A DNA stretch of 64,000 nt from a virus, in IMG/VR virus record IMGVR_UViG_3300008050_000019; one strand, 5' to 3'. The number at the start of each line of letters is the position of its first letter. Position 1 is the stretch's first letter. The notes below the pieces were generated by a model. That model saw only the letters and a program-made list of their open reading frames with translations, did no database searches and was not told the origin of the DNA. Below are positions 1,963-54,178 of the stretch, piece after piece. Both the position numbers and the translations under genes were made by a program.

Positions 1963-2301
1963 CTATCTCTTCGAGACTAAGCGAAGGATCGCGTTTATTC
2001 CAGCTGTCATTTTTCTGACACCTGGTGGGTTATCTGAGTGTACTTTTATAATCGGTGGTATGAAATCGCTTGTTGCTACTTGCTCTTCTATCCATAAGAT
2101 AACGTCATTGCCCGTGCCATGCACATCATCTCCAAGATCATGATCAAGTGATACTTCACTTACTTTCTCAGTCTTTAATAACTGTATTACGTCTTCTGGC
2201 CAACGACAAAGCGTGTAACCAGGTGGGCATTTACGTTTATCATCAAGGAAAAGTTTCATATCAACCATGTATATGGTATTACGATATGAAACTTTAAACA
2301 C
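1963..2301 (-). CDS. hypothetical protein
   Basis: ORF track; annotated N-terminus overlaps conserved promoter-like motif at 2275-2302, so true start is probably the internal Met (MVDMKLF). Confidence 0.45.
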   Translation of the reverse strand: MFKVSYRNTIYMVDMKLFLDDKRKCPPGYTLCRWPEDVIQLLKTEKVSEVSLDHDLGDDVHGTGNDVILWIEEQVATSDFIPPIIKVHSDNPPGVRKMTAGINAILRLVSKR

Positions 2302-2302
2302 A
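2275..2302 (-). promoter_or_regulatory. conserved promoter-like motif (site C)
   Basis: Transcribed strand TGTGTTTAAAGTTTCATATCGTAATAC, then CATATACATGG with an ATG 7 nt later. Confidence 0.4.
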
Positions 2303-2310
2303 TTTTTTAT

Positions 2311-2976
2311 TCAAAAATAGGCTTTAGGAAATCTTTTTCTACCGTATGCTAACCAAACTTTCTTTACTCGTTCAATCATTTCATCTGTTAAAACAGGATC
2401 TATATCAAACTCTTTCATTTGGTGTCTAACGCTGTCAAACTTCTTGTTTAAGAAGTAAGACGCAGGTACTCTAGCAGTTTTTGCTTGCTTGTAGATGCCT
2501 GAAACAAATGCAGCAACCTCACCCTTGTCTAAAAGATAAGCTTCCGCTTGTTTTAGCGTTTTTCTTCCATGCTCATACTCTATATCCCAACCTTGTTGGG
2601 CAGTATGCTCTAACTCATGTCTAATAATAGATTTCAGTTCAGGAATAAGAAGTTCCATGTCATCAAACATGGAAGTTTGATCATCATGCCAATCTTCCGA
2701 CACATCTATATTTATGAGTATGGACTTCTTCCCGTCATTTGTATGTTGACCATAAGCACCACTTAGCACAGGAGCCTTACCAGGCTTTAATGATGAGGTT
2801 ACCACAACAAAAATCGCATCGACATTTTCAATGTCAGATTTAAGCTTAAAGACATTTTTTTTCTTGAGCTTATTTTTGTATATAACTTTTATTTTTCTGA
2901 CGATTTGCCTTGATATATGTGTCGTTTCATTCTCAAAACGACCCTCAAGAAGGCATTGCTTTAACTCAAAAGACAT
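2311..2976 (-). CDS. hypothetical protein
   Basis: 221-aa ORF, no motif recognised. Confidence 0.45.
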   Translation of the reverse strand: MSFELKQCLLEGRFENETTHISRQIVRKIKVIYKNKLKKKNVFKLKSDIENVDAIFVVVTSSLKPGKAPVLSGAYGQHTNDGKKSILINIDVSEDWHDDQTSMFDDMELLIPELKSIIRHELEHTAQQGWDIEYEHGRKTLKQAEAYLLDKGEVAAFVSGIYKQAKTARVPASYFLNKKFDSVRHQMKEFDIDPVLTDEMIERVKKVWLAYGRKRFPKAYF

Positions 2977-3000
2977 ATATACTATGTATGGTACATAATG

Positions 3001-3369
3001 CTAACTATTGCAATAACCCTCGCAACAAACCAAATCTCCATTACAAATCTCTGGATAAATCTCAGTTGCTAGGCATAGCAGAACGCATTGCGACAGGTTA
3101 CCTGCGTCTGGTGGTCCGACGTCAACTGGATTAGCATCTAATGCTCCAGCGTCTATGAAGCCGGCGTCTATGAAGCCGGCATCAATGAAGCCGACGTCTG
3201 GCATACCCCCGTCATATAAAACTTCTCCAGCATCTGGCATTACACTTGCATCATAAAACCTGGTGGGTCTTTGGGCGGAAATTGCTGAGCTGCATCCCCT
3301 TGACCCACATTCATCACAGGCAGCTAAAGACAGAAGCGCAAGCGCCATAAATAATTTTCGTTTAAACAT
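3001..3369 (-). CDS. lipoprotein with GFIDA tandem repeats and Cys-rich C-terminus
   Basis: N-terminal signal peptide with lipobox (LSLAAC); 'DAGFIDAGFIDAGFIDAG' encoded by a 15-bp tandem repeat at 3146-3200; C-terminal Cys cluster. Confidence 0.55.
   Translation of the reverse strand: MFKRKLFMALALLSLAACDECGSRGCSSAISAQRPTRFYDASVMPDAGEVLYDGGMPDVGFIDAGFIDAGFIDAGALDANPVDVGPPDAGNLSQCVLLCLATEIYPEICNGDLVCCEGYCNS
3146..3200. repeat. 15-bp in-frame tandem repeat (x3 plus partial copies) encoding GFIDA
   Basis: gtctatgaagccggc / gtctatgaagccggc / atcaatgaagccgac. Confidence 0.7.
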
Positions 3370-3745
3370 TTTTTCCTCTAAACCTACTTTTTCCCAACAA
3401 GCGAACGCCTAAATAAGCAATCCCTGCTCTGTATTTGTCAACTTTATCAACCTTAACTAAGATTGAGTAAAAAATTATGTCACATTCTTTTCTAGATAAG
3501 AAATACTCGCTTCCGTCTTTATAAAGTCTGTTATCTGAGTAGAGATAATCATGAGCACATGTACCGATCTTAGCATCAATACCAAGAAAGTTTCTTAGCC
3601 ATTGTGGTCCAGCTGCACCATTCCAAGGAAATTTCTTTGGGATGGTTACTATTCGCTCATCAATGGCCAATTTCAATTCTTTTTGTAGAATAAACTTTTT
3701 ATTATTTAGCTTAGAGTACAAAAATTTTGATGCTACTATCTTCAT
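3362..3745 (-). CDS. hypothetical protein (C-x-H-D motif)
   Basis: ORF track extends to 3751 via a GTG; first ATG is at 3745 and abuts the tRNA at 3749; contains 'GTCAHDYLY' (phospholipase-A2-like C-x-H-D signature, weak). Confidence 0.4.
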   Translation of the reverse strand: MKIVASKFLYSKLNNKKFILQKELKLAIDERIVTIPKKFPWNGAAGPQWLRNFLGIDAKIGTCAHDYLYSDNRLYKDGSEYFLSRKECDIIFYSILVKVDKVDKYRAGIAYLGVRLLGKSRFRGKNV

Positions 3746-3748
3746 ATA

Positions 3749-3822
3749 CACTCCCTAGTGGATTCGAACCACTGACCTTGAGCTTAGAAGGCTCCTGCGC
3801 TATCCAGCTGCGCTAAGGGAGT
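3749..3822 (-). tRNA. tRNA-Arg (anticodon TCT)
   Basis: Reverse complement folds as a cloverleaf: acceptor ACTCCCT/AGGGAGT (A1:U72), D-arm GCGC/GCGC, anticodon loop CTTCTAA, T-arm AGTGG-TTCGAAT-CCACT. One mismatch in the anticodon stem. Confidence 0.6.
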
Positions 3823-4125
3823 AAATTGGCGCCACATTTAAAGCGCCTGCATATAGAATAGAATCATGTAATATACTACCGGGCCTATATACTCCCGGCA
3901 GGTAACCTGTATATGGTAAACTTGACATTGCCACGATTTATTATATGGCGACTTCTAAATGTCATGTGTCAAGCTCATTACATGATAATGATAAAGCTAT
4001 GGCTTTAATGTTCTAAGTCAGCGCATAATATTAACCCTCGTATTAAACTAATTGATTCCTCACGCTCAATCAGACGTTCGGCGTGTCGCAACCACAACAG
4101 CTGGCTAAGTAGCGTACTAGCCATA

Positions 4126-4210
4126 TGCTCAGAGCGGGAGTCGAACCCGCACTCCCATTAAGGGCGACGGATTTTAAATCCGTTGCGTCTACCAATTCCG
4201 CCATCCAAGC
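4126..4210 (-). tRNA. tRNA-Leu (anticodon TAA), type II
   Basis: 85-nt cloverleaf with long variable arm; anticodon loop TTTAAAA; T-arm GCGGG-TTCGACT-CCCGC; acceptor GCTTGGA/TCTGAGC with two G:U pairs. Confidence 0.6.
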
Positions 4211-4414
4211 TAATTTTCATTCAAGGTTATTTATTCCTTGTTAAAATATAATACCACCCTTTGAATTCAAAGATACTGTTATTTTTCATTAATTTAAATC
4301 AGTCAAGCTTTCTTAAACCAAGAAGCAGGAAATGGCATTCCCATACCCACTAAGCCATAATATACAGAACTGGCCTTGGTAGTTCAATCTTTATTATCTC
4401 ACCCATCTGTGTTC

Positions 4415-4720
4415 CTAAATGCTTTTATTCAAAGTAAATTCTGTCTGAGCAGGAAACACGATCGTTTTAATTCTGTAAGACTGATTCTTAAGTGTGTAGT
4501 TAACAACAGATAAACGGCCAGCAGACACTAATTCATTAACAAAGACAATCATTTTGTTTGCATCTAAGCCGCTAGGAAGAATAATATTTTCGTCATTCAA
4601 GTAATGTACTGAAGTGGATGCCAGCACTGTCAGTGTCATGGGTCCTTCTATGGTCACCTTATCAACCAAATAGTTTTTGAAATCGGCCTTTGTAAAAAAG
4701 GTACTCTTTTTTTTGTTCAC
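4415..4720 (-). CDS. hypothetical protein
   Basis: ORF lying between tRNA genes in the tRNA cluster. Confidence 0.4.
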   Translation of the reverse strand: MNKKKSTFFTKADFKNYLVDKVTIEGPMTLTVLASTSVHYLNDENIILPSGLDANKMIVFVNELVSAGRLSVVNYTLKNQSYRIKTIVFPAQTEFTLNKSI

Positions 4721-4721
4721 A

Positions 4722-4795
4722 CGCCTCCTAGTGGACTCGAACCACCAACCTTAGGTTTAGGAAACCTACGCGCTATCCAATTGCGCCAAGGAGGC
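4722..4795 (-). tRNA. tRNA-Arg (anticodon CCT)
   Basis: Clean cloverleaf: acceptor GCCTCCT/AGGAGGC, D-arm GCGC-AATTGGATA-GCGC, anticodon stem TAGGT/ACCTA with loop TTCCTAA, T-arm GGTGG-TTCGAGT-CCACT. Confidence 0.8.
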
Positions 4796-4911
4796 AATAT
4801 TCCAGCCCGGCTTTGAACCAGGATCTCTCTATTACGAGCGCTTTGACCGCTAAAAGATAAGCTAAGTAACCAAACTTCCGCCCATTCTTTTTTAAGCTAC
4901 TGGATTACTGA
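4796..4911 (-). other. tRNA-like remnant / unassigned structured spacer
   Basis: 116-nt spacer between two tRNAs contains a good T-arm (CCTGG-TTCAAAG-CCGGG) and an anticodon-like stem-loop (AGCG-GTCAAAG-CGCT), but I could not close an acceptor stem. Confidence 0.25.
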
Positions 4912-4984
4912 TACGGCTGGGTGGAATTGAACCACCGACGTCCACCTTATAAGGATGGCGCTCTTACCCCTGAGCTACAGCCGT
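4912..4984 (-). tRNA. tRNA-Ile (anticodon TAT, reads AUA)
   Basis: 73-nt cloverleaf: acceptor ACGGCTG/CAGCCGT (A1:U72), D-arm GCTC-AGGGGTAA-GAGC, anticodon stem CCATC/GGTGG with loop CTTATAA, T-arm GGTGG-TTCAATT-CCACC. Confidence 0.55.
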
Positions 4985-4989
4985 TTACT

Positions 4990-5382
4990 TTAAATGCTAT
5001 CTAAAACAGTTTGCATTTTATCTCGTACATCATCGAGCATTTCATCAATGGGGTCCATCTTCGCTCTAAGCTTATCATGCACCATCTCTTTAGCAGCTTC
5101 TTGTACATGGCGATCATAATCTCCAACCATCATGTCAACTATGTCAAGAAAGCGAAATGATTTCCCGTTAATAGTAAGCTCAACAGCAAAATTCCCGCCT
5201 TTCTCTTTTGCATCAAGAGCAACAGCTTCAACAATGCTTCTGTCTGCACTTATTAGGTTAAGAATTATTGTACCATACACGTTTTTGGAAGAACCTAGAA
5301 CGTCAATAGTACTAAAAGATTCTACACCATCTTTGTATGTAACATCAAAGGCTCTTTTAGTTTTACTTTTAATTTCTTCCAT
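4990..5382 (-). CDS. hypothetical protein
   Basis: 130-aa ORF flanked by tRNA-Ile and tRNA-Met. Confidence 0.45.
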   Translation of the reverse strand: MEEIKSKTKRAFDVTYKDGVESFSTIDVLGSSKNVYGTIILNLISADRSIVEAVALDAKEKGGNFAVELTINGKSFRFLDIVDMMVGDYDRHVQEAAKEMVHDKLRAKMDPIDEMLDDVRDKMQTVLDSI

Positions 5383-5401
5383 CTTCTTTCTTTCTTTTAA
5401 A

Positions 5402-5474
5402 TGGGCCCAGAGGGATTCGAACCCCCGACAAAGGAGATATGAGCTCCCGACTCTAACCGCTGAGCTATAGGCCC
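5402..5474 (-). tRNA. tRNA-Met (anticodon CAT; could be an Ile2/lysidine type)
   Basis: Clean cloverleaf: acceptor GGGCCTA/TGGGCCC, D-arm GCTC-AGCGGTTA-GAGT, anticodon stem GGGAG/CTCCT with loop CTCATAT, T-arm GGGGG-TTCGAAT-CCCTC. Confidence 0.8.
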
Positions 5475-5538: not shown

Positions 5539-5889
5539 TTATTTTTTTCTAAATTTCATTAGTTTTTTGTAATGATGCGCTTTGTGGGCGCAAACTAGTT
5601 TGGTGTGCTCGATTTTATCTTCGTACAAACCGTCAGCCTTCATAAGAAGCTCAAGTGTTACAGTAAGGTTGCTGCCAGAACCAACGCCAGATAGAAAAGA
5701 AGTAAATTTCACCAAGTTTTCTGCAGTTTGGTTAGTAGCTGGACATGAATAGTATGTATTAACTACAGCTTTAAGCAATCCAGTTCGCTGGGCATCATCG
5801 AGCAAGATAATTGGGCCTTTCGCAGCAATTCGAACTGCATAATCTTGCCAAGATTCAATGATCAATTTTGCTGTATTGGTCCACCGCAT
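5539..5889 (-). CDS. hypothetical protein
   Basis: ORF track. Confidence 0.4.
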   Translation of the reverse strand: MRWTNTAKLIIESWQDYAVRIAAKGPIILLDDAQRTGLLKAVVNTYYSCPATNQTAENLVKFTSFLSGVGSGSNLTVTLELLMKADGLYEDKIEHTKLVCAHKAHHYKKLMKFRKK

Positions 5890-5939
5890 ATAGTAATTAT
5901 ATCACGCATTAAATCATTTAACACATAAAGTTTACTGTG

Positions 5940-8523: not shown

Positions 8524-8534
8524 AGACGTAATCT

Positions 8535-8616
8535 CCAGGCTCACTCCTGATAAACCGGATATTTTATAATATAACCCCTTATTTTAATAAGGCCGGTTTA
8601 TCAGGAGTGAGCCTAG
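8535..8616. terminator. long-stem hairpin element (family copy 2); likely bidirectional terminator between convergent genes
   Basis: 22-bp perfect stem 8537-8558 / 8593-8614 with 34-nt AT-rich loop, between the end of the plus-strand gene 6865..8523 and the end of the minus-strand gene 8652..8960. Confidence 0.6.
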
Positions 8617-8651
8617 AAACAACCATGACACTTCATGATTAAAGGCAGGAA

Positions 8652-9135: not shown

Positions 9136-9384
9136 TTAATGGGCAGCTTTGTTTGGTGCTAATTTGCAACACTGACGTGCCCTGTAGTTAAGGATATGAA
9201 CCCCAAATTTAGAATAAACCCAATGCACGTATGAGGTGGGCTCACCTCTAGCAGCATAGGATGAGGGTGGCAAAGCGTTTCGTAAAAGAACAATAATAAC
9301 ATCACCTTCACTAAAGAAGGCTTGCTTATACATGAACCGTTTCTGGGGTGTGAGGACTGCCCCAACTTCGAATGTATTACTCAT
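9136..9384 (-). CDS. hypothetical protein
   Basis: ORF track; an alternative-frame ORF 9159..9365 makes the frame call uncertain. Confidence 0.3.
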   Translation of the reverse strand: MSNTFEVGAVLTPQKRFMYKQAFFSEGDVIIVLLRNALPPSSYAARGEPTSYVHWVYSKFGVHILNYRARQCCKLAPNKAAH

Positions 9385-9677
9385 GTCATGCCATCAAACA
9401 TAGAAGCAAATTTACTGTAATTTGCAATAACCCAATCACATGAATTAACCCAACCAGCAGGCGTTTCATAAACCTCATCAGCCCAGGGGTTTAAATACGT
9501 CAATAAAAAGATTGCTACGCCATGCTCAAAAGGTATTCCAGCATCTTTCCAGTCACGTTTGTATGAATAGCACTTATCAGCATGGCAACTTACTATACCT
9601 GGACATCGATTAAAGTCGCCGCCAGCTAGACTTAAAAAAGCAGGAAAATTTCTATCGAGCCATTTGTAGTGATTCAT
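9381..9677 (-). CDS. hypothetical protein
   Basis: ORF track; overlaps the 9136..9384 ORF by 4 nt. Confidence 0.4.
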   Translation of the reverse strand: MNHYKWLDRNFPAFLSLAGGDFNRCPGIVSCHADKCYSYKRDWKDAGIPFEHGVAIFLLTYLNPWADEVYETPAGWVNSCDWVIANYSKFASMFDGMT

Positions 9678-9998
9678 ATAAATATATTATAACATCAGAT
9701 GACAGGATACACTTTTATTTTAACGATGAAATTAGCCTGTAGTATGACATGTCAGCTATAACATTAATAATACTACTCTGGTGAATAAAATGTGTTGATG
9801 TTGTGTTCCAGTGAAATGTGCCTGCGGGCTTAATATCAGCAAACAAAAATATAAGAGGTGAATTGACAGGGATAAGATCGTCAGAAGCATGGATCTTATT
9901 TTGAAATAGACCTACCTGTGAGCTATATAAATCGACAGCACTGATTAATACAACAACATCACCAAATTTTAATGGAGCACTTTTACAGTTATGCAAGC

Positions 9999-10849: not shown

Positions 10850-11332
10850 TTAGATTATAAGTTTTTCAATGCGCGTAAATTTTTTATTTAGAGCATGTAA
10901 TGCTGTTTCTAAATCTTCTATACACTCGCTATCGAATGCGCCGCAAATGAATAACTGATCAGACAATTTCTCCATCCAAGGTTCCAAAAGAACTAGTTCT
11001 GAATGGGCTCCACTATATGTGAATTTGCTGCCTGTGTGCAGTGTGGTTATGTGACCGTTGACTAAACTTACTCGCTCTGCATCTGTTACTTGCTCGCTGT
11101 TAAAATTCCACCCATACTCATATGAGTGAACCACAGGAGAAAATCCAGACAATATACTTTGACTATCCTCCAACTCAAAAGACTCAAAATTTGTAACGAT
11201 AACATTATCATAATCGCTCGCGATTAAATGTTGATAAACATCAATCAGAACATGGGGGTATGATTTACCCTGTGCTGCCATACACTCAGCCCACATAGCT
11301 TGCATGTGATGTATAATGATTGTTTTTGTCAT
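10850..11332 (-). CDS. hypothetical protein
   Basis: ORF track. Confidence 0.4.
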   Translation of the reverse strand: MTKTIIIHHMQAMWAECMAAQGKSYPHVLIDVYQHLIASDYDNVIVTNFESFELEDSQSILSGFSPVVHSYEYGWNFNSEQVTDAERVSLVNGHITTLHTGSKFTYSGAHSELVLLEPWMEKLSDQLFICGAFDSECIEDLETALHALNKKFTRIEKLII

Positions 11333-14269: not shown

Positions 14270-15256
14270 TTATTCTTCTGTTTCTGGCCCTGTTTCTTCT
14301 ACTTCTGCATTTTCATCTGCATCATGCCAAATGATGCCTGGACAATACCCATCTTTAGCTGCCTTAACATACGTAATGAAAAATCCGATGAACTCTTTAA
14401 GCGCGGATGGCTTTGAATGATGGTTGTCCCTATATCGGTCATATAAGGTTATGCAAAGAGCAATTATCGCAATTATCGCAATTATCGCAGCAATAACCGC
14501 TGTAGACCAGATGATAATTGAAAAAAATGAGGGCCAAGTCATCTTTAAGATAAACGTGTATATGTCAGATCCAAACCGCATAAGTACAAACCCTATGAAA
14601 ATTCCCACAGCTGTACACACAACATAGGCAAGCCCATAGACAATATATCTTGTGTACTTTATGATGGTCATAAAAATGTTCATTCTGGTTGCAGCTGCTT
14701 TTTTAGCTTTCTCTTGTCTTGCTTTTGCTTCTTTAAATGACGCATTTAACCTCTCTTTAAATGGTCCTTTCAAAGCCTCGAAGATCTCTTTATGATCTTC
14801 ATTTTCATCCAGCCATATGTTTAGAATCCGTTGAAGAGCATGGCGGTTTATGACATCTCCGTCTTCATCTAGTTCATGAAATATACTATGGTATGTGTTA
14901 CACCAGCGAAAATCGTACACATTTAACAACCAGTGTATACGATACGCTTGCTGGTTGGTCATTGTACTAAGTTCTTTGATAATGAAATTCTCCGTATTTC
15001 TAGCTGTCCTTAATGCAACGGCAGTTGTGAACCAATCGACGCAGTTCGCAACCTGATCAATCCACCAGAAAAATACATCGCGAATAATTCTTAACATTAA
15101 AACTGCTGGCGACGCTAACATGCAAAATACCGTTAGCCAAAAATATGGACAAAGGTTGCCAAAATTCGGTGGGCTTTTAAAAGTCCACTGCTGGAGTCTA
15201 TGGTGCCAAGCACCTCTTGTCAAATTTACTATCATATAGTGATTCCTTTTGAGCAA
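14270..15256 (-). CDS. multi-pass membrane protein with AII repeat
   Basis: Several hydrophobic segments; 'AIIAIIAIIA' encoded by a 9-bp tandem repeat at 14461-14490. Confidence 0.5.
   Translation of the reverse strand: MLKRNHYMIVNLTRGAWHHRLQQWTFKSPPNFGNLCPYFWLTVFCMLASPAVLMLRIIRDVFFWWIDQVANCVDWFTTAVALRTARNTENFIIKELSTMTNQQAYRIHWLLNVYDFRWCNTYHSIFHELDEDGDVINRHALQRILNIWLDENEDHKEIFEALKGPFKERLNASFKEAKARQEKAKKAAATRMNIFMTIIKYTRYIVYGLAYVVCTAVGIFIGFVLMRFGSDIYTFILKMTWPSFFSIIIWSTAVIAAIIAIIAIIALCITLYDRYRDNHHSKPSALKEFIGFFITYVKAAKDGYCPGIIWHDADENAEVEETGPETEE
14461..14490. repeat. 9-bp in-frame tandem repeat (caattatcg x3) encoding AII
   Basis: Direct reading of the sequence. Confidence 0.7.
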
Positions 15257-15729
15257 TCTGTATATTGTTTTATATCTTGTATTGTCACAGTGTCAACGTC
15301 AGGAAAAACACACGAGACAAGAATTTCTAATGCGTACGCTTGCACGATTGCAATGTGGTTTGCATAACACAACTCGTATCCGAACTCCCACCCTTGATCT
15401 GACATCGAGGGTGACATTTCGCCACAATGATTATTGTCACCATAATAAAATGCATTTAAAACGTTATGTAATGATTCTGACGTTACTACTGGAACCAGGG
15501 GGTTGCCGCAAGTAGAGCAAAATTTTGCAAATGAAGAATAGCTCTTCCCGCAATGCTCTGAGGTTAAATATCCCTCATTTACTTCTAAGTAAGATGAATA
15601 AAAATCCTTCATGAACATACGGAGCATATCGGTGACTGTGTCAAAGCCATCTTGGTGAGTGATACTAAGCTCAGTTATCGCACCAGTCTCCGCGTAGCCG
15701 GGTTTTAATAAAATTTGATGAACTCTCAT
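15232..15729 (-). CDS. zinc-ribbon-containing hypothetical protein
   Basis: 'CGKSYSSFAKFCSTCGNP' Cys pairs; conserved promoter-like motif 12 nt upstream of the ATG. Confidence 0.45.
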   Translation of the reverse strand: MRVHQILLKPGYAETGAITELSITHQDGFDTVTDMLRMFMKDFYSSYLEVNEGYLTSEHCGKSYSSFAKFCSTCGNPLVPVVTSESLHNVLNAFYYGDNNHCGEMSPSMSDQGWEFGYELCYANHIAIVQAYALEILVSCVFPDVDTVTIQDIKQYTDCSKGITI

Positions 15730-15738
15730 TGATTAATA

Positions 15739-15769
15739 AATTATATTACGAATTATTCATTTTAACACA
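15739..15769 (-). promoter_or_regulatory. conserved promoter-like motif (site D)
   Basis: Transcribed strand TGTGTTAAAATGAATAATTCGTAATATAAT, 12 nt before the ATG of 15232..15729. Confidence 0.45.
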
Positions 15770-16088
15770 ATCTATTAATCAATTTGTGTTTAAGCGGAAT
15801 CTTGTTATACCCTGCAATAACGCAAAATTTACCATCTACAAAAACAACAAAGTCATAACGTGACCATTTTTCGTTGTATGATCTTCCTGAGCCTATATAC
15901 ACCATGATACCTACATTAGGTCTGCAATCAGAAAAGAGCTTGTAAGTAGTGGGGATGTACACTTCATCTTCCCACCCAACTAGATCTCTTCTATAGAGAC
16001 GGTGGACAGAGTTACATTCATGTGCGTCAGATTTATTTTGCCACACATTCTCTTGCAGAATGAACAAATCACCAGGTTTTAAAGCCAT
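15762..16088 (-). CDS. small 'GDLV/GDLF-motif' family protein
   Basis: N-terminal 'KPGDLFIL' motif shared with 16135, 47597, 47791, 48083 and others. Confidence 0.4.
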   Translation of the reverse strand: MALKPGDLFILQENVWQNKSDAHECNSVHRLYRRDLVGWEDEVYIPTTYKLFSDCRPNVGIMVYIGSGRSYNEKWSRYDFVVFVDGKFCVIAGYNKIPLKHKLINRLC

Positions 16089-38476: not shown

Positions 38477-38517
38477 GATATGTTAATATTAACATTATAT
38501 TTTTTGCATTTACACGT

Positions 38518-38877: not shown

Positions 38878-39138
38878 TGTTATATTATTCTCTATTTAGT
38901 TTTTAAGTTTAAATTGAGTAATCTTTTATTAACTCGCTTGTATTAGAACCATATGTCCAAATTTGTCCTGAGATCCATTAGCAAAAAATTCGCTAAATGG
39001 CTACTACCATATTATGCGTCTGAGTATCTATTTTGGCGAATTTGAATATCATGGAAAATATACAACTCGAACATGTGCAAGATTAATCCTGCTCTTTTCT
39101 GGATGATTTTATATCATCACTAGGATGGTAATAGGTTA

Positions 39139-39167
39139 AAAATTACGATGAACTAGTAATTCAATCA
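39139..39167 (-). promoter_or_regulatory. conserved promoter-like motif (site B, partial)
   Basis: Transcribed strand TTGATTGAATTACTAGTTCATCGTAATTTTTAACC, in a 283-nt ORF-free gap. Confidence 0.3.
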
Positions 39168-39442
39168 AGTTGTGATACTAACTCAATGTCTATAACTTCA
39201 ATGCTACGAGTTTCACCCATAGGCATCTTTTTAATGAGACCTCTTTTACCATCCCCGTTTTCTTCGTCGACACCTAAAAATAGAAAGTACGTGCCCTTCT
39301 CGATGGGTACTGCTCCTTTAAACCAATCGTATGGGTGTTTTTCCTTTCCTTCATCATTTCCAAAAATAAACCCGTCTGATCGTGAAACTAAATCTTTAAC
39401 TGTCATAACCATATCGCCAAGTCTAAAACTACTTTTTACCAT
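39161..39442 (-). CDS. small 'GDxV-motif' family protein
   Basis: 'FRLGDMVMTVKD' N-terminal motif. Confidence 0.35.
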   Translation of the reverse strand: MVKSSFRLGDMVMTVKDLVSRSDGFIFGNDEGKEKHPYDWFKGAVPIEKGTYFLFLGVDEENGDGKRGLIKKMPMGETRSIEVIDIELVSQLD

Positions 39443-39680
39443 CGCCTTTTTTTGCCTTTTTTAAGAAAAGAATATCTTCTCGTGATATTTTTTCTATTCT
39501 ATTATCTACATAGACGTTGCAGAAGGGTCCATGAGCCCATACATCATAACGTCTATGAAATGTCATGTTTGTTTTACCAGAATTAAAACCCTCTTGTAAC
39601 GAGAGAATTATTCCTATTTTATTTAATGATGATATCACAATAAGATCACCAATTTCATATAAAGTTTTATCTACACACAT
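39429..39680 (-). CDS. small 'GDLV-motif' family protein
   Basis: 'YEIGDLIVISS' motif. Confidence 0.35.
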   Translation of the reverse strand: MCVDKTLYEIGDLIVISSLNKIGIILSLQEGFNSGKTNMTFHRRYDVWAHGPFCNVYVDNRIEKISREDILFLKKAKKGDGKK

Positions 39681-41532
39681 TTGAAAAAATTCCCCTTAGA
39701 ATGTTTGTGTATCGGGACGCATTTAGAGGATATAGTTCTATCAATCTTGCCACATCATTAAAGACTATAGAATCCCATTGCAGAAAGAACTGTGTTTGTG
39801 TTATTATATACATTTCGTATGCATCCCCTGGTGTGCATATACCTACACCACAGTTGCTCGTATTTAGCGCTACATCACTTTCATTGAACCCAGCAACTGT
39901 CTGGGCTGCTTCGTCTGTAATAAGAATGATGTAAGGGTATGCCCCTGTTGATGTTACAGTAGATTCTCTCCAATTGATAAGTGCTGGATTTGTGCTGTTC
40001 GCTAAATCATGAACTACATCGTATGAAGGCTCTACACCTGGATATGATGCGGTAAGATTGTTCAATGCTGCAGAAAATACAGTAAAATCAACGAGATTTA
40101 CTAGTACATTATAATTATCTCTTCTACCAGGAAATACAACTAAACCAAACCTATGTTCTGTCCCTTGAAAGTCTGCAACATAATTACTTATCCCTGCTTG
40201 CAGAGCGAACATAGCTTGTGTCATTGAACCTGAGCCATCTATCACAAAAATTATATCTACCTTATCATGTGGTGTAAGATCCTCATCGATGAGCCCATCA
40301 CAGTCATTGTCAACCCCATCACAAGATTCTTGCTCAGGATAAACTGGTCCAATGCAGCTTGACCAAATGCCTGAAGTGCATGTTCTCTCGCCTAAAACGC
40401 ATTGTCCGATACCAGCCGTAGCAGGATCTCCGCATGCGTCTGTTAACTCATCGATTGTGCCGTCGCAATCATCATCCCAGTTATTACACACTTCGGGCTC
40501 GGTAGCAAAAGAATAACATGTACCCCATACACCATTAGAATCGCATATTGAAATGCCGGTACCGCAATTGATAAGCTCTCCCGTAGCGTGATCTAAGACA
40601 TTTTGTCGGCATACTCTAGCGTCACCGACTGTACATGCACAATCTTCATCGATTATCCCATCACAGTCATTATCAAAACCATCACATATTTCTCGTACTG
40701 GTTTTCTAGCATTACACCCTATCCAGTTGCCCACGTTGCAACTTTCTATACCACTTTCACATGAGGTTCTGCATAACCTCTCAAGCCCTTCATCAATTGC
40801 ACCATTACAGTCATTATCAAAACCATCGCAAATTTCAGGCGAAGGGTGTACAGCACCAACGCAATATGTTTCTTCTGATGTACATATTTGAGTGCCAAGT
40901 TGACACAAACCAACTTCACTTGACGGGCCGCATGAATCTAAAATTTCTTCGTCAGTAATACCATCACAATTATTATCAAAACCATCGCAAGTTTCTGGTG
41001 TCGGCAAAATAACGCCTGTACATTGTCCCCACACACCATGAGTACACCTTTGTTTTCCAGTTCTGCAAACGCTAGGGCTAATATAACTGTCGACAGCTGG
41101 ACCAGTCCAGCAATCCCGTGAATAATTGTCAATTACACCATTACAGTCATTATCAAAACCATCGCAGATTTCTATCCCGCCTGGGTTTATTTCGGCTATA
41201 TTGTCGTTACAATCGTTATCACAAGAGTTGTAGCCATCACCATCACCATCATGTCCTTCGTCAACTAAACCATCGCAGTCATTGTCCAAACCATCACAGA
41301 TTTCATTAACTTGTCCGATGAACCCTTCACAAAATGCCATTTCATTTTTAGCATCGCATGAAGTAATCCCCTTTTGGCAAGTGCCAATAGAATCTTTAAG
41401 ATTATCTGTTATTATTTTTCCGTTATTTATTATACACGGGCGTGGGGACTGACATACTCTCGATAAGTTATCATCTTCACATGCAGCAATAAAAAGCAGG
41501 GAGATAGATAAAAGTATATATTTCAACTTCAT
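39667..41532 (-). CDS. lipoprotein with seven Cys-rich CDGxDNDCDGxxDE (MopE-like putative metal-binding) repeats and C-terminal vWA-like domain
   Basis: Lipobox signal 'LLFIAAC'; repeats 'EICDGFDNDCDG(I/L)IDE' x7; C-terminal MIDAS-like 'DIIFVIDGSGSM'. Confidence 0.6.
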   Translation of the reverse strand: MKLKYILLSISLLFIAACEDDNLSRVCQSPRPCIINNGKIITDNLKDSIGTCQKGITSCDAKNEMAFCEGFIGQVNEICDGLDNDCDGLVDEGHDGDGDGYNSCDNDCNDNIAEINPGGIEICDGFDNDCNGVIDNYSRDCWTGPAVDSYISPSVCRTGKQRCTHGVWGQCTGVILPTPETCDGFDNNCDGITDEEILDSCGPSSEVGLCQLGTQICTSEETYCVGAVHPSPEICDGFDNDCNGAIDEGLERLCRTSCESGIESCNVGNWIGCNARKPVREICDGFDNDCDGIIDEDCACTVGDARVCRQNVLDHATGELINCGTGISICDSNGVWGTCYSFATEPEVCNNWDDDCDGTIDELTDACGDPATAGIGQCVLGERTCTSGIWSSCIGPVYPEQESCDGVDNDCDGLIDEDLTPHDKVDIIFVIDGSGSMTQAMFALQAGISNYVADFQGTEHRFGLVVFPGRRDNYNVLVNLVDFTVFSAALNNLTASYPGVEPSYDVVHDLANSTNPALINWRESTVTSTGAYPYIILITDEAAQTVAGFNESDVALNTSNCGVGICTPGDAYEMYIITQTQFFLQWDSIVFNDVARLIELYPLNASRYTNILRGIFSNVCR

Positions 41533-41948
41533 ATATACTAACGTATATACGAAAAGTACCTATACGTTAATTAACTGTGTGTATCTTCTGTTGATTGCTC
41601 TGTTTTTTTCCTAAGCATTGAAACTACGGTAGCTAGGACAACTGTAAGAGCTAGGAAAAAACTGCCTGTACCAAATTGCCCAATGCCAAATGATATAGCA
41701 GAAAGGATACAATATATAATCATCGCTGGATAAATAATCATAATTCGATCCTAATAATTTTAGATTCTTCTGGTGTTCTATCTTCTATAGGTTCATCATC
41801 ACAGGGTAATGGAATTTGTATATATAACCGTTGTGGTTGCTCTTTCTGCTCTTCGCGAAGTTTGCTTAATGCATCAATTAACCATGCTGGTGTATAATTA
41901 CTCATATTGTGTCCTAATAATATTATTACTATATGTTAACATAGTACA

Positions 41949-42233
41949 CTAGCGACGAGCACTAATTTTACCCTTTATTTCGCCTAATTTTCCAATTATT
42001 ATGATGTTTTGTTCAACAATTCTTTCTAATTTTTCGTCTTGCTTAGCAACGTCTTTTTCCAAATTAGCGATTCGTGCTTCAAGGACTCGCCCGTCTTCTC
42101 TAGAAAGATAATTCTTGGCGCCCATATCATTAACATAAGCAATGGCACCACCAGTTGCTATTACTATCGCAACTATCCAGCTCCCGAAATTCTTAAAGAG
42201 CGTTAGTGTATTATAGGACGTCATCTTGGGCAT
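41949..42233 (-). CDS. membrane-anchored coiled-coil protein
   Basis: N-terminal TM helix 'FGSWIVAIVIATGGAIAYV'. Confidence 0.4.
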   Translation of the reverse strand: MPKMTSYNTLTLFKNFGSWIVAIVIATGGAIAYVNDMGAKNYLSREDGRVLEARIANLEKDVAKQDEKLERIVEQNIIIIGKLGEIKGKISARR

Positions 42234-42533: not shown

Positions 42534-43199
42534 TTAATTTATATGCACAAAAGAGCCGAATCGGTCTTTTATTAATAGCTCCAATTCGCCCTTTTCAATA
42601 AGAGGATGAATCACAGACAAGTAGCTATCGCCCTTTTTTGTTACTTCATCACTAAATGTTGCAGCATTATTAAGTGTTAACCAATTAAGAGCTAATTTAA
42701 GATCATTGGCATAAGCAGCAGTCATATTGACCGCTTTGCTAACTGATTCTCGTAAACCATGACGTCGCCGTTGTTTCTGTGCTGCAGAACTAGTAGTAAT
42801 AACAGACTCAGCCCAAGCTAATCCAGGTCGTAGGTGTGGAATCGCAATATTCTTAGCCGAAGAAATAGAAATCCACTTTGAAGAAGCGTGCTCGTATTTC
42901 TTTGTATGTGGATTCTTTGATATTTTTGCAGGCTGTATAGTAACACCAATGAACAATATAGTCTTTGTGCCATTATGACTTATCATACCCCACGGAAATT
43001 TTACATTAGAAATGCCAGCTTCTTCTTGTGTTTCTCGGGCTGCTGCACCAAATGCATCTTCTCCAGGGTCAATTTTCCCCTTGGGTAAGTCCCACCTTCC
43101 ATCGTGCGTTTTTAAGCATAGCACATGAGGCTTGTTTTTCAAAAACTTAATAAGTACAATGCCTGCGCTCTTTGTTTTAAACGCTTCTAAAAGGTTCAT
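42534..43199 (-). CDS. Nudix hydrolase
   Basis: Nudix box 'GKIDPGEDAFGAAARETQEEAGI' (Gx5Ex7REUxEExGU). Confidence 0.8.
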   Translation of the reverse strand: MNLLEAFKTKSAGIVLIKFLKNKPHVLCLKTHDGRWDLPKGKIDPGEDAFGAAARETQEEAGISNVKFPWGMISHNGTKTILFIGVTIQPAKISKNPHTKKYEHASSKWISISSAKNIAIPHLRPGLAWAESVITTSSAAQKQRRRHGLRESVSKAVNMTAAYANDLKLALNWLTLNNAATFSDEVTKKGDSYLSVIHPLIEKGELELLIKDRFGSFVHIN

Positions 43200-43212: not shown

Positions 43213-45031
<1,819 letters not shown>

Positions 45032-45073: not shown

Positions 45074-45898
45074 CTAAATTGAATTATGTTGTAAGTTACC
45101 GAACGTTTTTGTGTACTTAGCCCAAGTTGAGTCTTTGGTCATTGAGTTAAATTCGAATCCTACGAATTTTGCTTTGACAACATCCCAAGAAGCATGGCCT
45201 TTAGTTGTTTCAATTTCCGCCCATTCTTCATCAGGTAAAATATGAAACCTGATTAAGGTCTTACAAAGCTCATAGAGTTCACGGGCTTCTTTTCTAGACA
45301 ACTTCTGATCAAAGAGGATAGGATTATTTAACATTGCTTGCGCTGTCTTAGAACCTATCCCAAAAACACCTGGGATATTATCCGACCCGTCGCCCACAAG
45401 CGCTTTCCACTTAACATAATCATATGTAGGAGCCGAAACAAACTCTTTTTTCATGGGATTCCATAAAGTAACGTTATTATACAGTTGCAACAGCTGGATG
45501 AAGTCTGTGTCATTCGACACGACGGTTACGTCATCATTCGGATGTAGTCTGCTAATGATGTTTGATACTATATCATCTCCCTCGTAATTGGGATGCCTTA
45601 AAACTGTAATAGGGAAATCACGTAATATGCTAAAGATTTCATCTTTCTGGCGAGAAAAAGAGTCATATTCTTCACTTTCCATAGGAACACGTGTTCCTTT
45701 ATATTCTTCAAAGATTTCTAAACGCTTTACAGGAACACCTTCACTTGTTAGGTAACAAACGTCAGGTTTATGTTTCTCAATGATGGGTCTTAAGCCCCGA
45801 AAGAAGTTAAAACAAATAGGCCAATTGCCTTTTGAGTATCCGCTGCGGGCGCGGTGAATGAGGTTATAGCCGTCTAAAATTAAAACTCGTTTTCCCAT
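45074..45898 (-). CDS. 5'-3' exonuclease / flap endonuclease (T4 RNase H-like)
   Basis: 'KRVLILDGYNLIHRA' N-terminal motif and 'YEGDDIV' acidic cluster typical of the PIN-like 5' nuclease domain of Pol I / T4 rnh. Confidence 0.75.
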   Translation of the reverse strand: MGKRVLILDGYNLIHRARSGYSKGNWPICFNFFRGLRPIIEKHKPDVCYLTSEGVPVKRLEIFEEYKGTRVPMESEEYDSFSRQKDEIFSILRDFPITVLRHPNYEGDDIVSNIISRLHPNDDVTVVSNDTDFIQLLQLYNNVTLWNPMKKEFVSAPTYDYVKWKALVGDGSDNIPGVFGIGSKTAQAMLNNPILFDQKLSRKEARELYELCKTLIRFHILPDEEWAEIETTKGHASWDVVKAKFVGFEFNSMTKDSTWAKYTKTFGNLQHNSI

Positions 45899-45950
45899 AA
45901 ATTATTATAATTCGAAAGAAAACATTTTTACACTCTTATGTATTGAAGTT

Positions 45951-46289
45951 TTAATCAGCTAGCTTTAGGCCAATGGCAGCACCACGTTTACAAAACGTCC
46001 ATTTAGCGGTGACTTCGCCCCGCTTTAAATAGGATTCAGTCACAAGAGTATAGAAGTCAACCAAAAACATGTGATAATAGTTTCCTCTTAGATCTTCTAA
46101 AGTAAAACCTACTGAGGATCTGCCCTTCGAGTAGGAAATAATCTTCATTGTCGCATCGAACTCGAAGTTCTCTTTCCATGTTACAGGTTCATCACGTCTC
46201 GACTTATGATTATATGCACTTGATGCATTTTTCGCTGCCCCATGTACAACTTGCCCGTCATCTAAAATTGCAACTTTCCATTTTGCCAT
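45951..46289 (-). CDS. hypothetical protein
   Basis: ORF track. Confidence 0.4.
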   Translation of the reverse strand: MAKWKVAILDDGQVVHGAAKNASSAYNHKSRRDEPVTWKENFEFDATMKIISYSKGRSSVGFTLEDLRGNYYHMFLVDFYTLVTESYLKRGEVTAKWTFCKRGAAIGLKLAD

Positions 46290-46322
46290 AATGTATTATA
46301 TCACACAGGAAATTTTAATACA

Positions 46323-46739
46323 CTATCCTTTATACACAAGATCTTGCAGCGATGCGTAGTTGAATCCATCACCCGCTAATCCCTCAGTCTTTTCTTTGAC
46401 CCACTTCCCCAAACCTTGCATAATCATTCTTTTCATTTCTTCGAGATTCTCTTCGTCAGCAGCTCTATCAAACTCAGTGGTATCATGCACAATGTCATAA
46501 GCATCAATTCCCCACCGCCCAAAAATATCCTCAAGTTCAGTTTTGTCTGTTGCGACAGTGATATCATGGTTAAGTTTTTCAATGCCAGCAGCAAAATCTG
46601 TTTTCGCCGAGTCAAAAGTTGAAGATCTGACATCTTCTATTTCTGCTCTAACATCACCCTGATTGTTCGTTTTTGGTCCCCTCATTTTATAATTCCAGAC
46701 CAACTCTTCGTTGATAAATTTCTTTAAAATATCACTCAT
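46323..46739 (-). CDS. hypothetical acidic protein
   Basis: ORF track. Confidence 0.4.
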   Translation of the reverse strand: MSDILKKFINEELVWNYKMRGPKTNNQGDVRAEIEDVRSSTFDSAKTDFAAGIEKLNHDITVATDKTELEDIFGRWGIDAYDIVHDTTEFDRAADEENLEEMKRMIMQGLGKWVKEKTEGLAGDGFNYASLQDLVYKG

Positions 46740-47596: not shown

Positions 47597-47791
47597 TTAT
47601 AGTTTTAAACTAGCAATTACAGTAACACAGACCTGATGAACTGGAATGTTGTAAATATAGCCATCAATCATAACTGCATGGTGTGGAACAAATCCATAAA
47701 GTGTTTTTTCTACGTAAATACCGCATTCGGAATCTACGTGTTTAGAAAGTTTAAGTTCAACTAAATCACCAAATGAAAAATTTAACTGCAT
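47597..47791 (-). CDS. small 'GDLV-motif' family protein
   Basis: 'FSFGDLVELKL' ... 'YIYNIPVH'; clear paralogue of 47791..48015. Confidence 0.45.
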   Translation of the reverse strand: MQLNFSFGDLVELKLSKHVDSECGIYVEKTLYGFVPHHAVMIDGYIYNIPVHQVCVTVIASLKL

Positions 47792-48015
47792 TATTCACTC
47801 AGCCTAGTCAACAAAACTAAATCTACATCATGTACAGGAATGTTATACAGATTACCTTCAATCATAAGCTTATATTGATCTGCATCAACCCATGAACCTG
47901 TGGAGTATGATTCTTGTACAAAGACGCAGCCACGAAAACGCTCTATATATATACCAAATAACGCCCCGATTCCAACAGGTAATATTCCAACTAAATCGCC
48001 AAAGAAGAAATCCAT
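47791..48015 (-). CDS. small 'GDLV-motif' family protein
   Basis: 'FFFGDLVGILP' ... 'LYNIPVH'. Confidence 0.45.
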   Translation of the reverse strand: MDFFFGDLVGILPVGIGALFGIYIERFRGCVFVQESYSTGSWVDADQYKLMIEGNLYNIPVHDVDLVLLTRLSE

Positions 48016-48082
48016 TTATTTAATTATAAAATATTAAATGAATAAAATACACTCGTTTATAACGCCACTTTAGTCACTCATA

Positions 48083-52311: not shown

Positions 52312-52323
52312 GTGCTGTCCCTT

Positions 52324-52893
52324 TTATAGATCAAGTGTAAATGTTACACGATATTGCACATCAGCTGCTTGAGATGTACCTTGTATAATTGTACTGCTAA
52401 GCAAAGTATAAGCACAGATTCCGTGAATAGCATACTCATTTGCGTTATAAGAACTCAGTGTAGTTAACCCGACGATGTTTATATCTCTGGCAACAGTAGG
52501 CGCAGAAAACTGTACTGTCCTTGTCTGTACGAGTGTTGATGCATCAAGTGTAGTTGTATCTGGCGCTTTTACCTGGCTAGGTGTTTGACTGTCATAAACA
52601 TGCTGTAGTGATGTTCGTGCGACATTTGATGGTACAGTACCTTGGTGGATGAACACTTTGATTAAAGAACCAAATGCTGTCCCGCCGGCAATCATTCGAC
52701 GTGTTTGATCTGTGATCGTATTAGATTGCCACCCACTGTCAAGGGAGTAGTCACCCCTTGTTATAATGGCTTCGCGTATATCTTCGTACTTCCATGTAGG
52801 ATGCATTTTTGATGCTTCATCAATCACACGTTGATCAATAAGTTTAATCCTTGCTTGTCCTTTGATGTTAAATGAATTTACTGTAATCGACAT
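52324..52893 (-). CDS. putative structural protein
   Basis: Adjacent to the giant structural gene; Thr/Ser-rich. Confidence 0.4.
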   Translation of the reverse strand: MSITVNSFNIKGQARIKLIDQRVIDEASKMHPTWKYEDIREAIITRGDYSLDSGWQSNTITDQTRRMIAGGTAFGSLIKVFIHQGTVPSNVARTSLQHVYDSQTPSQVKAPDTTTLDASTLVQTRTVQFSAPTVARDINIVGLTTLSSYNANEYAIHGICAYTLLSSTIIQGTSQAADVQYRVTFTLDL

Positions 52894-52895
52894 AG

Positions 52896-53960
52896 TTACC
52901 CAATAATTATTGAACCAAAGGCTGTTCCTGAAATAAACCGACCTATTCCTTTGCCCCAGGACGTCTGTGTATAAGTATCAACTATAGGTTGTGTTGAACC
53001 AGATTTAACTTGTACTATGCCATATTCACTTACCACCGTCGCAGGCGAAAACATTCCTTTACCGAAGGCTGTCTGTATGTAGTCATCTGTCGGGGGAATT
53101 ACATTAACTGGGCGTGTCTCTACAACAGTTATATTTCTAGAACTAGGAAACATCGAAGAGTTGAATCTAGAGCTTAACCTTGATGTGTTAGCTGCGGGCT
53201 CACTTATACCGTCACTTTCAATCGTGTCAAAAGGCGCTTTTATTTTACCTTCAATCAGCTGCGTCGAATTTGGTCCTTTAAAATTTACTTGCGTAACAAA
53301 ATACTTCGCAGCCTGTGAAGGAATTTCAAATTCATAAATGTGGGGATCAAGTTTCACGAATGGAACGAGTGTGCTATTAAATCTAACCAATTTACCTGTT
53401 CCATGCAATTTTCCATACACATTAAAACCTGCAATATTAAGATTTAGATTCGACAATGATGATGGCAAAGCTCGCCACCGAATCATCATTGTCGAAGACG
53501 GCGTCGGCGACGCCGCAACAGCAATAGCGCTGATGGGTTTTGTTGCATCAGCATGAATAGGCATATTACCGATGACTTTTCCGGCTTCGAGTTGTTTTAC
53601 GCTATCATTAACAGGTGCACTAAATACTGCAAGTTGCAGGTTGTCTATTATAGTGGCAGTCTGAGCGACTTGAGTTGCAGGAGCATCATTTTCATCAAGT
53701 GTAATAAGATAAAGATTTTCATTAAGCACGTAACAAAAGATCCAAGTGCCTTCAATGGGATCAAAGAAAATCTCTGGGCGCTCACCTTCTGCTAAAAGCC
53801 TAACTTCACTCTCTAGTGTACCATTAATATCACGTTGGACAAAGATTGATGTACCAGTAAGATACGGCCTTTCATAAACGTACCATATAATTGAAGCGTC
53901 AGAATTTGATGCGACCGATATTTTTCCTACGTCACTAGTGAATGTTATCTGAGTCGCCAT
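52896..53960 (-). CDS. putative structural protein
   Basis: 354 aa, beta-rich composition; 3-nt gap to the downstream gene. Confidence 0.4.
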   Translation of the reverse strand: MATQITFTSDVGKISVASNSDASIIWYVYERPYLTGTSIFVQRDINGTLESEVRLLAEGERPEIFFDPIEGTWIFCYVLNENLYLITLDENDAPATQVAQTATIIDNLQLAVFSAPVNDSVKQLEAGKVIGNMPIHADATKPISAIAVAASPTPSSTMMIRWRALPSSLSNLNLNIAGFNVYGKLHGTGKLVRFNSTLVPFVKLDPHIYEFEIPSQAAKYFVTQVNFKGPNSTQLIEGKIKAPFDTIESDGISEPAANTSRLSSRFNSSMFPSSRNITVVETRPVNVIPPTDDYIQTAFGKGMFSPATVVSEYGIVQVKSGSTQPIVDTYTQTSWGKGIGRFISGTAFGSIIIG

Positions 53961-54149
53961 ATGAATTATTCAGTTGGAATGCTGCCTTCTCTGTTATAAA
54001 TAAAGACGATACCACATACTTCGCATGTATGCTTTTCATAATAAACATTATTGTCTGCGGGATCTTGCTCGTATGTTATCGTCCAGCGAGTCTGGTGTCT
54101 ATGCTGCCCTCTAGTTGTTTCCATCTACTAACCTACACAAATAAAGTGC

Positions 54150-54178
54150 GTTGATAAATTACGAAATGATATTAACCT
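54150..54178 (-). promoter_or_regulatory. conserved promoter-like motif (site E, partial)
   Basis: Transcribed strand GGTTAATATCATTTCGTAATTTATCAACG, ~30 nt upstream of a short unlisted ORF beginning near 54124. Confidence 0.3.

Follow-up and report, generated by a model that had tools for sequence, protein, structure and literature searches.

An RpoD-like sigma factor is a recognised hallmark of the T4-like group 2 jumbo phages. As described by Iyer et al. (2021, PMC7824862), phages of groups 2 and 2.2 combine such a sigma with a MoxR-vWA-peptidase pair and have no RNA polymerase. We found no description in the literature of the promoters that the RpoD-like sigmas of group 2 jumbo phages serve. 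Here we describe a promoter-like sequence family, built on a GTGT box and a TAnnAT hexamer, in a 64,000-nucleotide stretch of DNA from an uncultivated phage (IMG/VR record IMGVR_UViG_3300008050_000019), hereafter called the window. The window is part of a contig of 308,593 bp, a size that makes this a jumbo phage. Two traits of groups 2 and 2.2 are present, an RpoD-like sigma factor and a pair of AAA_5 and DUF2201_N/DUF2201 proteins, and nothing resembling a subunit of RNA polymerase appears in the window. Genes for the gp23-type capsid, family B polymerase, gp33 and minimal sigma that also go with these groups would, if encoded, be located beyond the window and its flanks. Early/middle-type genes include those for rIIA-like and rIIB proteins, RNA ligase, DNA ligase, a DnaB-like ATPase, Cpn60, a NUDIX protein, a 5'-3' exonuclease and six tRNAs.

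Several described systems come close to parts of what is seen here. SPO1 gp28 and gp33/34, T4 gp55 and gp36 of phiEco32/7-11 (PMC8948821) are phage sigma factors, and like them the sigma of the window could redirect the host core enzyme; it differs from them in being a near-full-length RpoD/RpoS-like protein, neither of the extracytoplasmic function (ECF) type nor minimal, and its pairing with the promoters described below is a candidate one. A -16 region motif, T-17G-16T-15G-14, is known from Gram-positives and mycobacteria (PMC6212719). Finally, leaderless genes carry a TANNNT signature about 12 nucleotides (nt) upstream of the start codon (PMC3160421).

A GTGT/TAnnAT family upstream of genes

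A first-pass annotation had proposed a promoter-like family, with TGTGTT and CGTAAT boxes, upstream of several genes. This proposal holds, and the family proved larger and statistically stronger than first described. The pattern TGTGTT-N10-18-CGTAAT has 5 matches in the 64-kb window against 0.10 expected, a number reached in none of 100 shuffles. All five exact copies (T of TGTGTT at 2302, 15769, 36241, 36326 and 36412) are intergenic and lie on the minus strand, which is the coding strand and carries 104 of the 114 open reading frames (ORFs) of the window. The copies named in the first-pass annotation were real, but they had been quoted as reverse complements, all being on the minus strand; likewise, the two copies reported in the gap 36172-36430 are indeed there, but a third, at 36241, had been missed. 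The boxes are separated by 13 or 14 nt, i.e. 19-20 nt from start to start, in agreement with the constant spacing of about 20 nt that had been claimed. At the first site the ATG follows 7 nt past CGTAATAC, as stated, while at the second it was measured at 10 nt past ...TATAAT instead of the 12 nt given. Two further sites described as partial (39139-39167 and 54150-54178) contain CGTAAT, but neither is preceded by a suitably spaced GTGT box, and TAATTT occupies the place of the -10 hexamer; they are not members.

Allowing up to 3 mismatches to the exact motif added sites that all lie in coding-strand intergenic gaps, and the most enriched hexamers of coding-strand intergenic DNA were TAATAT, ATAATA, TATAAT and GTAATA. 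When the sites were listed, they shared one architecture: GTGT(T/A)(A/T/C), 17-18 nt, TAnnAT. The corresponding pattern GTGTWH-N16-18-TAnnAT has 16 matches in coding-strand intergenic DNA of the window, compared with 4 within coding-strand genes, 1 in opposite-strand intergenic DNA and 3 within opposite-strand genes; dinucleotide shuffles of the intergenic segments (n = 300) gave a mean of 0.52 and a maximum of 3. The family has at least 17 members in the window, counting the site at 2301, where an ORF call had masked it. The sites are spread over 57 kb. The flanks of the phage's own genome added a few sites, one of them on the other strand and co-oriented with its gene.

The exact copies have a single -10 register, CGTAA|TAnnAT, the hexamers being TATTAT, TACTAT, TATAAT, TACCAT and TAAAAT. 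The register of this CGTAAT class is fixed by the site at 5924, which reads CG-TGA-TATAAT, a TGn followed by TATAAT. The exact TGTGTTAA...CGTAATAT copies are the family members nearest the consensus, which in the window is an (A/T)GTGT(T/A)(A/T) box, a 17-18 nt spacer ending in Y-17 G-16 T-15 W-14 A-13, and TAnnAT. Over 30 sites from the window and related phages, the spacer measured 17 nt in 11 and 18 nt in 19. Among the 17 window sites, columns that no search had imposed are conserved: position -17 is C in 8 and T in 6, -15 is T in 14, -14 is A in 8, T in 5 and G in 4, and -13 is A in 12. G-16 is found in 14/17 (p = 1.8e-8), and it is still present in 8/11 sites absent from the first-pass annotation (p = 1.2e-4). 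The stretch from Y-17 to A-13, previously described as 'CGTAA', is a third element that stands in place of the extended -10 motif. It resembles the extended -10 and T-17G-16T-15G-14 motifs in its location at -17 to -13, its pyrimidine at -17, and its G-16 and T-15, yet the G-14 that is key to TGn occurs in only 4/17 sites, A-14 and A-13 being preferred.

The family was also compared with the canonical sigma70 promoter (TTGACA-N17-TATAAT). The spacing of 17-18 nt, the TAnnAT hexamer with its invariant A-11 and T-7, the AT-rich discriminator, and the position and orientation of the sites relative to genes are all shared, as are T-34 and G-33. The difference lies in the GTGTWW -35 box, in which G-35 and T-32 are invariant, -31 and -30 are A or T, and C-31 is absent. 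The combination GTGTWW/YGT/TAnnAT would be a variant of the sigma70-type promoter class. A canonical TTGACA class was not enriched across the approximately 84 kb sampled. The control pattern TTG[AT][CAT][AT]-N16-18-TAnnAT displayed no intergenic or strand enrichment in the window, and a generic sigma70 scanner yielded 63, 62 and 68 matches versus 59, 51 and 59 in shuffles, i.e. no excess.

We also approached the question from the start codons, using as an unbiased anchor only the TAnnAT hexamers located before the annotated start codons of 102 genes, with the expectation derived from internal ATGs. The distance from TAnnAT to the start codon peaks sharply at 5 nt (first T at -11), in 10/102 genes compared with about 0.7 expected, and 23 genes have the hexamer 4-10 nt before their start codon. 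GTGT occurs in the -35 zone of 12/32 anchored hexamers versus 26/483 other TAnnAT (odds ratio 10.5, p = 3.5e-7). A Shine-Dalgarno (SD) core is present in only 29/102 genes, and starts led by an SD characterise genes inside operons, that for AAA_5 for example. In several cases the -35 box runs into the stop codon of the preceding gene (TAGTGT...), so that the promoter takes up the entire gap of 32-52 nt.

As in the published leaderless signature, the first T of the -10 hexamer lies 11-14 nt before the start codon and there is no SD. This geometry is that of the leaderless genes of Actinobacteria and Deinococcus-Thermus (PMC3160421), but here it occurs in a jumbo phage of about 40% GC, in which leaderless first genes stand beside SD-led internal genes. 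The short and fixed distance from hexamer to ATG argues that most mRNAs of the family are leaderless. Transcription would begin 5-8 nt past the hexamer, which in most members coincides with the A of the start codon or falls a few bases short of it. A leaderless or near-leaderless mRNA would then serve the leading gene of each unit; the downstream genes of the operons use SD sequences. The very short or absent leaders that had been proposed for two sites would thus extend to the family in general. That the GTGT/TAnnAT sites constitute a promoter family with leaderless geometry is, in our estimate, highly probable.

All the sites detailed here lie on the minus strand. The hexamer is separated by 5 nt from the ATG at 21351-21379 (GTGTTC-N17-TACAAT; gene 20983-21345, followed by tRNA-Val and the rIIA-like gene), 29385-29414 (GTGTTA-N18-TAATAT; gene 29116-29379), 45904-45933 (GTGTAA-N18-TATAAT; 5'-3' exonuclease gene 45074-45898) and 46295-46323 (GTGTAT-N17-(TGTGA)TATAAT; gene 45951-46289). 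The distance is 4 nt at 2273-2302, the first site of the first-pass annotation (TGTGTTT-N-CGTAA-TACCAT; cREC_REC gene 1963-2268), 6 nt at 5896-5925 (TGTGTTA-N12-CGTGA-TATAAT; gene 5539-5889), 6-8 nt at 9684-9712 (GTGTAT-N17-TAATAT, TGTTATAAT; gene 9381-9677), 7 nt at 48023-48052 (GTGTAT-N18-TATAAT; gene 47791-48015) and 8 nt at 30621-30650 (GTGTTT-N18-(AGTTA)TATTAT; gene 30265-30612). The last of these comes directly after a strong intrinsic terminator (30653-30689, minus strand; 16-bp stem and T run), which abuts it and ends the operon for AAA_5, DUF2201 and a Major Vault Protein (MVP)-like protein. The second site of the first-pass annotation, at 15740-15769 (TGTGTTA-N12-CGTAA-TATAAT), precedes by 10 nt the ATG of the Zn-ribbon gene 15232-15729. 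Longer leaders are found at 25254-25283 (GTGTAA-N18-(CGATA)TATTAT; 30 nt with an AAGGA SD, gene 24720-25223) and 41920-41949 (GTGTAC-N18-(AGTAA)TAATAT; 14 nt with AGGA, gene 41738-41905). Finally, the site at 38486-38515 (GTGTAA-N18-TAATAT) precedes the 152-aa gene 38018-38476, which heads the sigma-containing operon, and that at 59700-59728 (GTGTTA-N12-TGTAA-TATTAT) is upstream of gene 59482-59664.

A tandem trio occupies the gap 36172-36430 before the AAA_5 gene (34867-36171). It consists of P1 (36382-36412, TGTGTTA-N13-CGTAA-TACTAT), P2 (36296-36326, TGTGTTA-N13-CGTAA-TATTAT) and P3 (36211-36241, TGTGTTA-N13-CGTAA-TAAAAT), the latter 40 nt upstream of the gene. The three units are about 85 nt apart and align only in their boxes (TGTGTTA, CGTAATA, ATAAA), the remainder having diverged; Tandem Repeats Finder called nothing at 36100-36500. 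Near-identical strains retain all three promoters, and relatives have one GTGT-type site at this position, before AAA_5.

The family in related phages and the anatomy of the sigma factor

Homologues of the sigma with 50-57% identity are found on long contigs with conserved synteny (designated below by L numbers). In the relatives whose sigma is 53-57% identical, the form GTGTWW-N17/18-TAnnAT recurs, followed by an ATG 5-7 nt further on. Matches on the coding versus the other strand were 6 vs 0 in L008 and 8 vs 2 in L009, most of them with an ATG 5-7 nt later, and GTGT, without being imposed, was the top 4-mer of the -35 zone in the window, L008 and L009. In several genomes the box is kept at the corresponding positions before AAA_5, before the 5'-3' exonuclease gene and before the gene that precedes sigma; at the exonuclease position, it is also present in L007 and L010.

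The exact TGTGTT...CGTAAT motif is absent from relatives with a 55% identical sigma, which share only the generalised form. When IMG/VR was searched for loci with a related sigma, just two came up, L001 and L002; both are distant and lack the motif. A scan of IMG/VR with TGTGTTAA-N11/12-CGTAATAT gave 47 contigs with one match each, i.e. the chance level, so that the phage itself is absent from the set scanned. A tblastn search with the sigma returned only relatives of at most 38% identity, and megablast of 12 kb against a phage collection gave no match.

The sigma gene (37148-37999, minus strand) had been recognised in the first-pass annotation as belonging to the sigma-70 family, in agreement with Pfam matches to Sigma70_r2 (6e-19), r1_2 (1e-8) and r3 (5e-5). 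The protein, of 283 aa, matches best SigA/RpoD/RpoS and is about 36-40% identical to cellular primary sigmas. Regions 1.2, 2 and 3 are present, with conservation of region 2.3/2.4 (GFRFSTYATWWIRQ). Where cellular sigmas have PVH in region 3.0, (S/P)GR is found instead, SGR in the protein of the window; R occupies the position of the His that is H455 in E. coli, and the Glu equivalent to E458 is not kept. Region 4.1 is kept, and region 4.2 is truncated and degenerate: the first helix of its helix-turn-helix (HTH) is deleted, the equivalents of E. coli R584, E585, R588 and Q589 are not conserved, and the C-terminus ends about 20 residues early. Alignments to solved sigmas in the PDB end at residue 261-266. 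In an AlphaFold2 (AF2) model (predicted local distance difference test score, pLDDT, 88) a helix at 246-256 is followed by a loop (257-271) and a short helix of 11 residues (272-282).

The interval from sigma to the AAA_5 promoter (36431-37155 on the minus strand; also in relatives) always holds two or three small genes, of 61-96 aa. The first overlaps the stop codon of sigma, and the genes are translationally coupled and conserved. They have no Pfam or PHROG match and are candidates for sigma partners.

Which factor may read the probable promoters

We tentatively propose that these bipartite sigma70-type promoters are read by the host core RNA polymerase, to which the phage's RpoD-like sigma would give specificity. 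The intact region 2 would read TAnnAT; the non-canonical -16/-15 and -35 elements would have their counterpart in the changes to region 3.0 and the degeneracy of region 4. A sigma equipped for normal reading of the -10 and abnormal reading of the -16 and -35 regions thus lies beside promoters in which the -10 is likewise normal and the other two elements are not, which is suggestive, though not proof. As an overall explanation, a bipartite promoter family read via the phage sigma is the best one available, and we give it a probability of about 0.5; taken by itself, the proposal that specificity comes from a host core carrying the phage's sigma has close to an even chance of being right, or slightly less.

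What was directly observed is a sequence family with a biased strand and position and a set geometry, its return in related phages, and how the domains of the sigma are built; promoter function and start sites are deduced from sequence alone. Several observations weigh against the part given to the phage sigma. In L010, L012 and L013 the GTGT box is sparse, though leaderless pairs of -10 and ATG persist. The residues at the -35-contact positions differ among phages that have the GTGT box (S-K-E-K in the window, R-E-L-R in L008, K-S-N-A in L009), which makes the terminal helix unlikely to be a conserved reader of GTGT. A GTGT-type site also stands at the head of the operon that contains the sigma gene itself, at 38515 in the window and likewise in L007 and L009; autoregulation with a primer, or another sigma, would therefore be needed. 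Furthermore, the genes served are of the early/middle type (rIIA/B, ligases, exonuclease, chaperonin, tRNAs), and such genes are often read by the host sigma. Since GTGTWW keeps T-34 and G-33 of TTGACA at canonical spacing, the host primary sigma could bind it.

These last points lead to the alternative that fares best, namely that the same promoters are read by the host primary sigma as an early/middle class with a deviant -35 box, the phage sigma serving another class. T4 early promoters likewise depart from the consensus of E. coli. The canonical 17-18 nt spacing and -10, the T-34 and G-33 shared with TTGACA, the type of genes served, the location of the sigma gene downstream of such a site and the variation of the putative recognition-helix residues among box-sharing phages would all suit this explanation, as would the tRNA-Met promoter, which at GTGACA-N18-TATAAT, with TG, is nearly canonical and the most sigma70-like site of the window. 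Yet the invariant G-35 and T-32 and the A/T at -31/-30 represent a consistent departure from TTGACA rather than degeneracy, no canonical class was enriched in the sampled DNA, and no second candidate class was seen for the phage sigma to serve. Moreover, G-16/T-15 without G-14 is unlike the known TGn and T-17G-16T-15G-14 motifs (PMC6212719). We regard reading by the host sigma as unlikely, while taking it seriously.

We also considered an activator-dependent mode of the T4 middle type, in which a MotA-like phage protein would bind the GTGT box and the sigma, be it that of the host or of the phage, would read only the -10 and -16 elements. As in T4 middle promoters, a phage-specific box replaces the -35 element before a sigma70-type -10, in a T4-like genome and in front of early/middle genes. 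The phage sigma has no canonical -35-reading HTH and its terminal helix is variable, so that another factor may read the invariant GTGT. The conserved, coupled small genes just downstream of sigma, and the T4-like gene content (rIIA/B, RNA ligase, group 2 jumbo phage features, PMC7824862), would fit as well. However, in the system described here the phage supplies an RpoD-like sigma whose region 4 is degenerate, as opposed to a host sigma remodelled by AsiA and MotA, and no MotA or AsiA match to PHROG or Pfam was found in 30 window proteins, the window being 64 of 308 kb. The MotA box is TGCTTtA, located 11-13 nt from TAnnnT, and both the sequence of the GTGT box and its distance of 17-18 nt to the -10 are unlike it. 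An activator of this kind is in our view improbable.

A function other than that of promoter (repressor operators, replication iterons in the case of the trio, a translation signal or relics of a dispersed repeat) is most improbable: an inverted partner of the box at 15769 and the tandem arrangement of three copies speak for it, but the motif lacks palindromic symmetry, strictly follows the orientation of the genes, has a bipartite geometry of 17-18 nt with a TAnnAT hexamer and a fixed short distance to start codons, is conserved in its boxes while the flanks differ, is dispersed over tens of kilobases, recurs at orthologous sites in relatives without similarity of the surrounding DNA, and matches no Rfam family, the only Rfam hits in the window being tRNAs.

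Several known classes were tried and rejected. The first-pass annotation had noted a resemblance to the -7 element of Bacteroidota promoters, based on sites D and E, which are the two non-members mentioned above. TAnnTTTG, which in the sigmaA promoters of that phylum accompanies TTTG at -33, is not enriched (74 occurrences versus 68.2 expected), and the internal genes use SD sequences. The T4-late -10 element TATAAATA occurs 7 times versus 6.3 expected. ECF sigmas have regions 2 and 4 only, and their promoters carry AAC at -35 and CGT at -10. An ECF-type reading of CGT was rejected, because the sigma has regions 1.2, 2 and 3 and CGT lies at -17 to -15, not at -10. CRP-like (TGTGA) and NtcA-like (GTA-N8-TAC) readings of the box were dropped, the box not being palindromic. 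The promoter classes of AR9 and phiKZ are read by phage multisubunit polymerases and do not match (PMC5312081). The 'moraphage' lineage (PMC12619734) is a different one, without sigma or RNA polymerase genes.

Genes behind the probable promoters and significance

The operon behind the trio (30704-36171, minus strand) starts with the MoxR-like AAA_5 ATPase, followed by a DUF2201 vWA/metallopeptidase (DUF2201_N/DUF2201; 33433-34866) and an MVP-like protein of 858 aa (30704-33280; MVP_shoulder 4e-19, Vault_3 2.5e-8). It is kept in the related jumbo phages L008, L010 and L013. The nearest cellular MVP homologues are all from Myxococcota, with 47-51% identity over the full length. Those of Cpn60/GroEL are from Bdellovibrionota, 'Deltaproteobacteria' and Myxococcota, with about 53-55% identity for the first two. 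The occurrence of Cpn60 and MVP homologues in Myxococcota and Bdellovibrionota is a weak hint as to the host. A vault-like shell protein in a phage, linked to a chaperone pair, may merit its own study.

The genes for Cpn60/GroEL (43213-44874, minus strand) and NUDIX (42534-43199, minus strand) lie just upstream of sigma, in an order conserved in relatives, and HSP20 genes are found upstream of sigma in L007, L008, L010 and L012. A protein of 621 aa (39667-41532, minus strand), kept in L008 and L010, contains seven MopE-type putative metal-binding repeats (4e-39) and a vWA domain. The cREC_REC protein (1963-2268, minus strand), which lies behind a consensus leaderless-type promoter, is a stand-alone cyclic-phosphate processing receiver domain (1e-26). 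The tRNAs comprise a cluster at 3748-5474 (minus strand; Arg-TCT, Leu-TAA, Arg-CCT, Ile-TAT, Met-CAT) and Val-TAC at 20909-20980 (minus strand).

Site D (TTGATT-N17-TAATTT) is located in an intergenic region of 283 nt (38878-39160, minus strand) that comes after gene 39161-39442. No family promoter was found near the 5' end of this region, which is possibly a small RNA or a regulatory region. Just upstream of the 15769 site, at 15770-15800 (minus strand) and still inside the last part of gene 15762-16088, the -35 box has an inverted partner, TTAAACACA-N15-TGTGTTAAA, which could be due to chance or be a regulatory palindrome. Similar long palindromes are present at 8524-8651 and 28406-28601 (GGCTCACTCCTGATAAACCGG...CCGGTTTATCAGGAGTGAGCC and AAGGCTCACTTCTAATAAAC...GTTTATTAGAAGTGAGCCT), with a third, related copy in the left flank (L061, about 11100-11170); these could represent a hairpin element present in several copies, bidirectional terminators or a small mobile repeat.

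With respect to the group 2 jumbo phages, the window supplies a concrete and statistically robust candidate consensus, made of three elements with a fixed leaderless geometry and shared by the members of a metagenomic clade. Next to it lies a sigma whose region 4 is unusual and degenerate, which makes the pairing directly testable, the more so as a 260-bp stretch carries three promoters. The consensus also provides a rule for annotating gene starts and operons in such genomes, and it would extend large-scale leaderless expression beyond the high-GC lineages in which it is usually found. More tentatively, the clade may have an initiation code of its own, in which a sigma that has lost the canonical 4.2 HTH and altered its region 3.0 directs the host core enzyme to a new GTGTWW -35 box and a new YGT element at -16/-15, in front of leaderless early/middle genes. 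If so, a large share of the early/middle genes of these phages would be expressed from leaderless mRNAs that start at the start codon itself.

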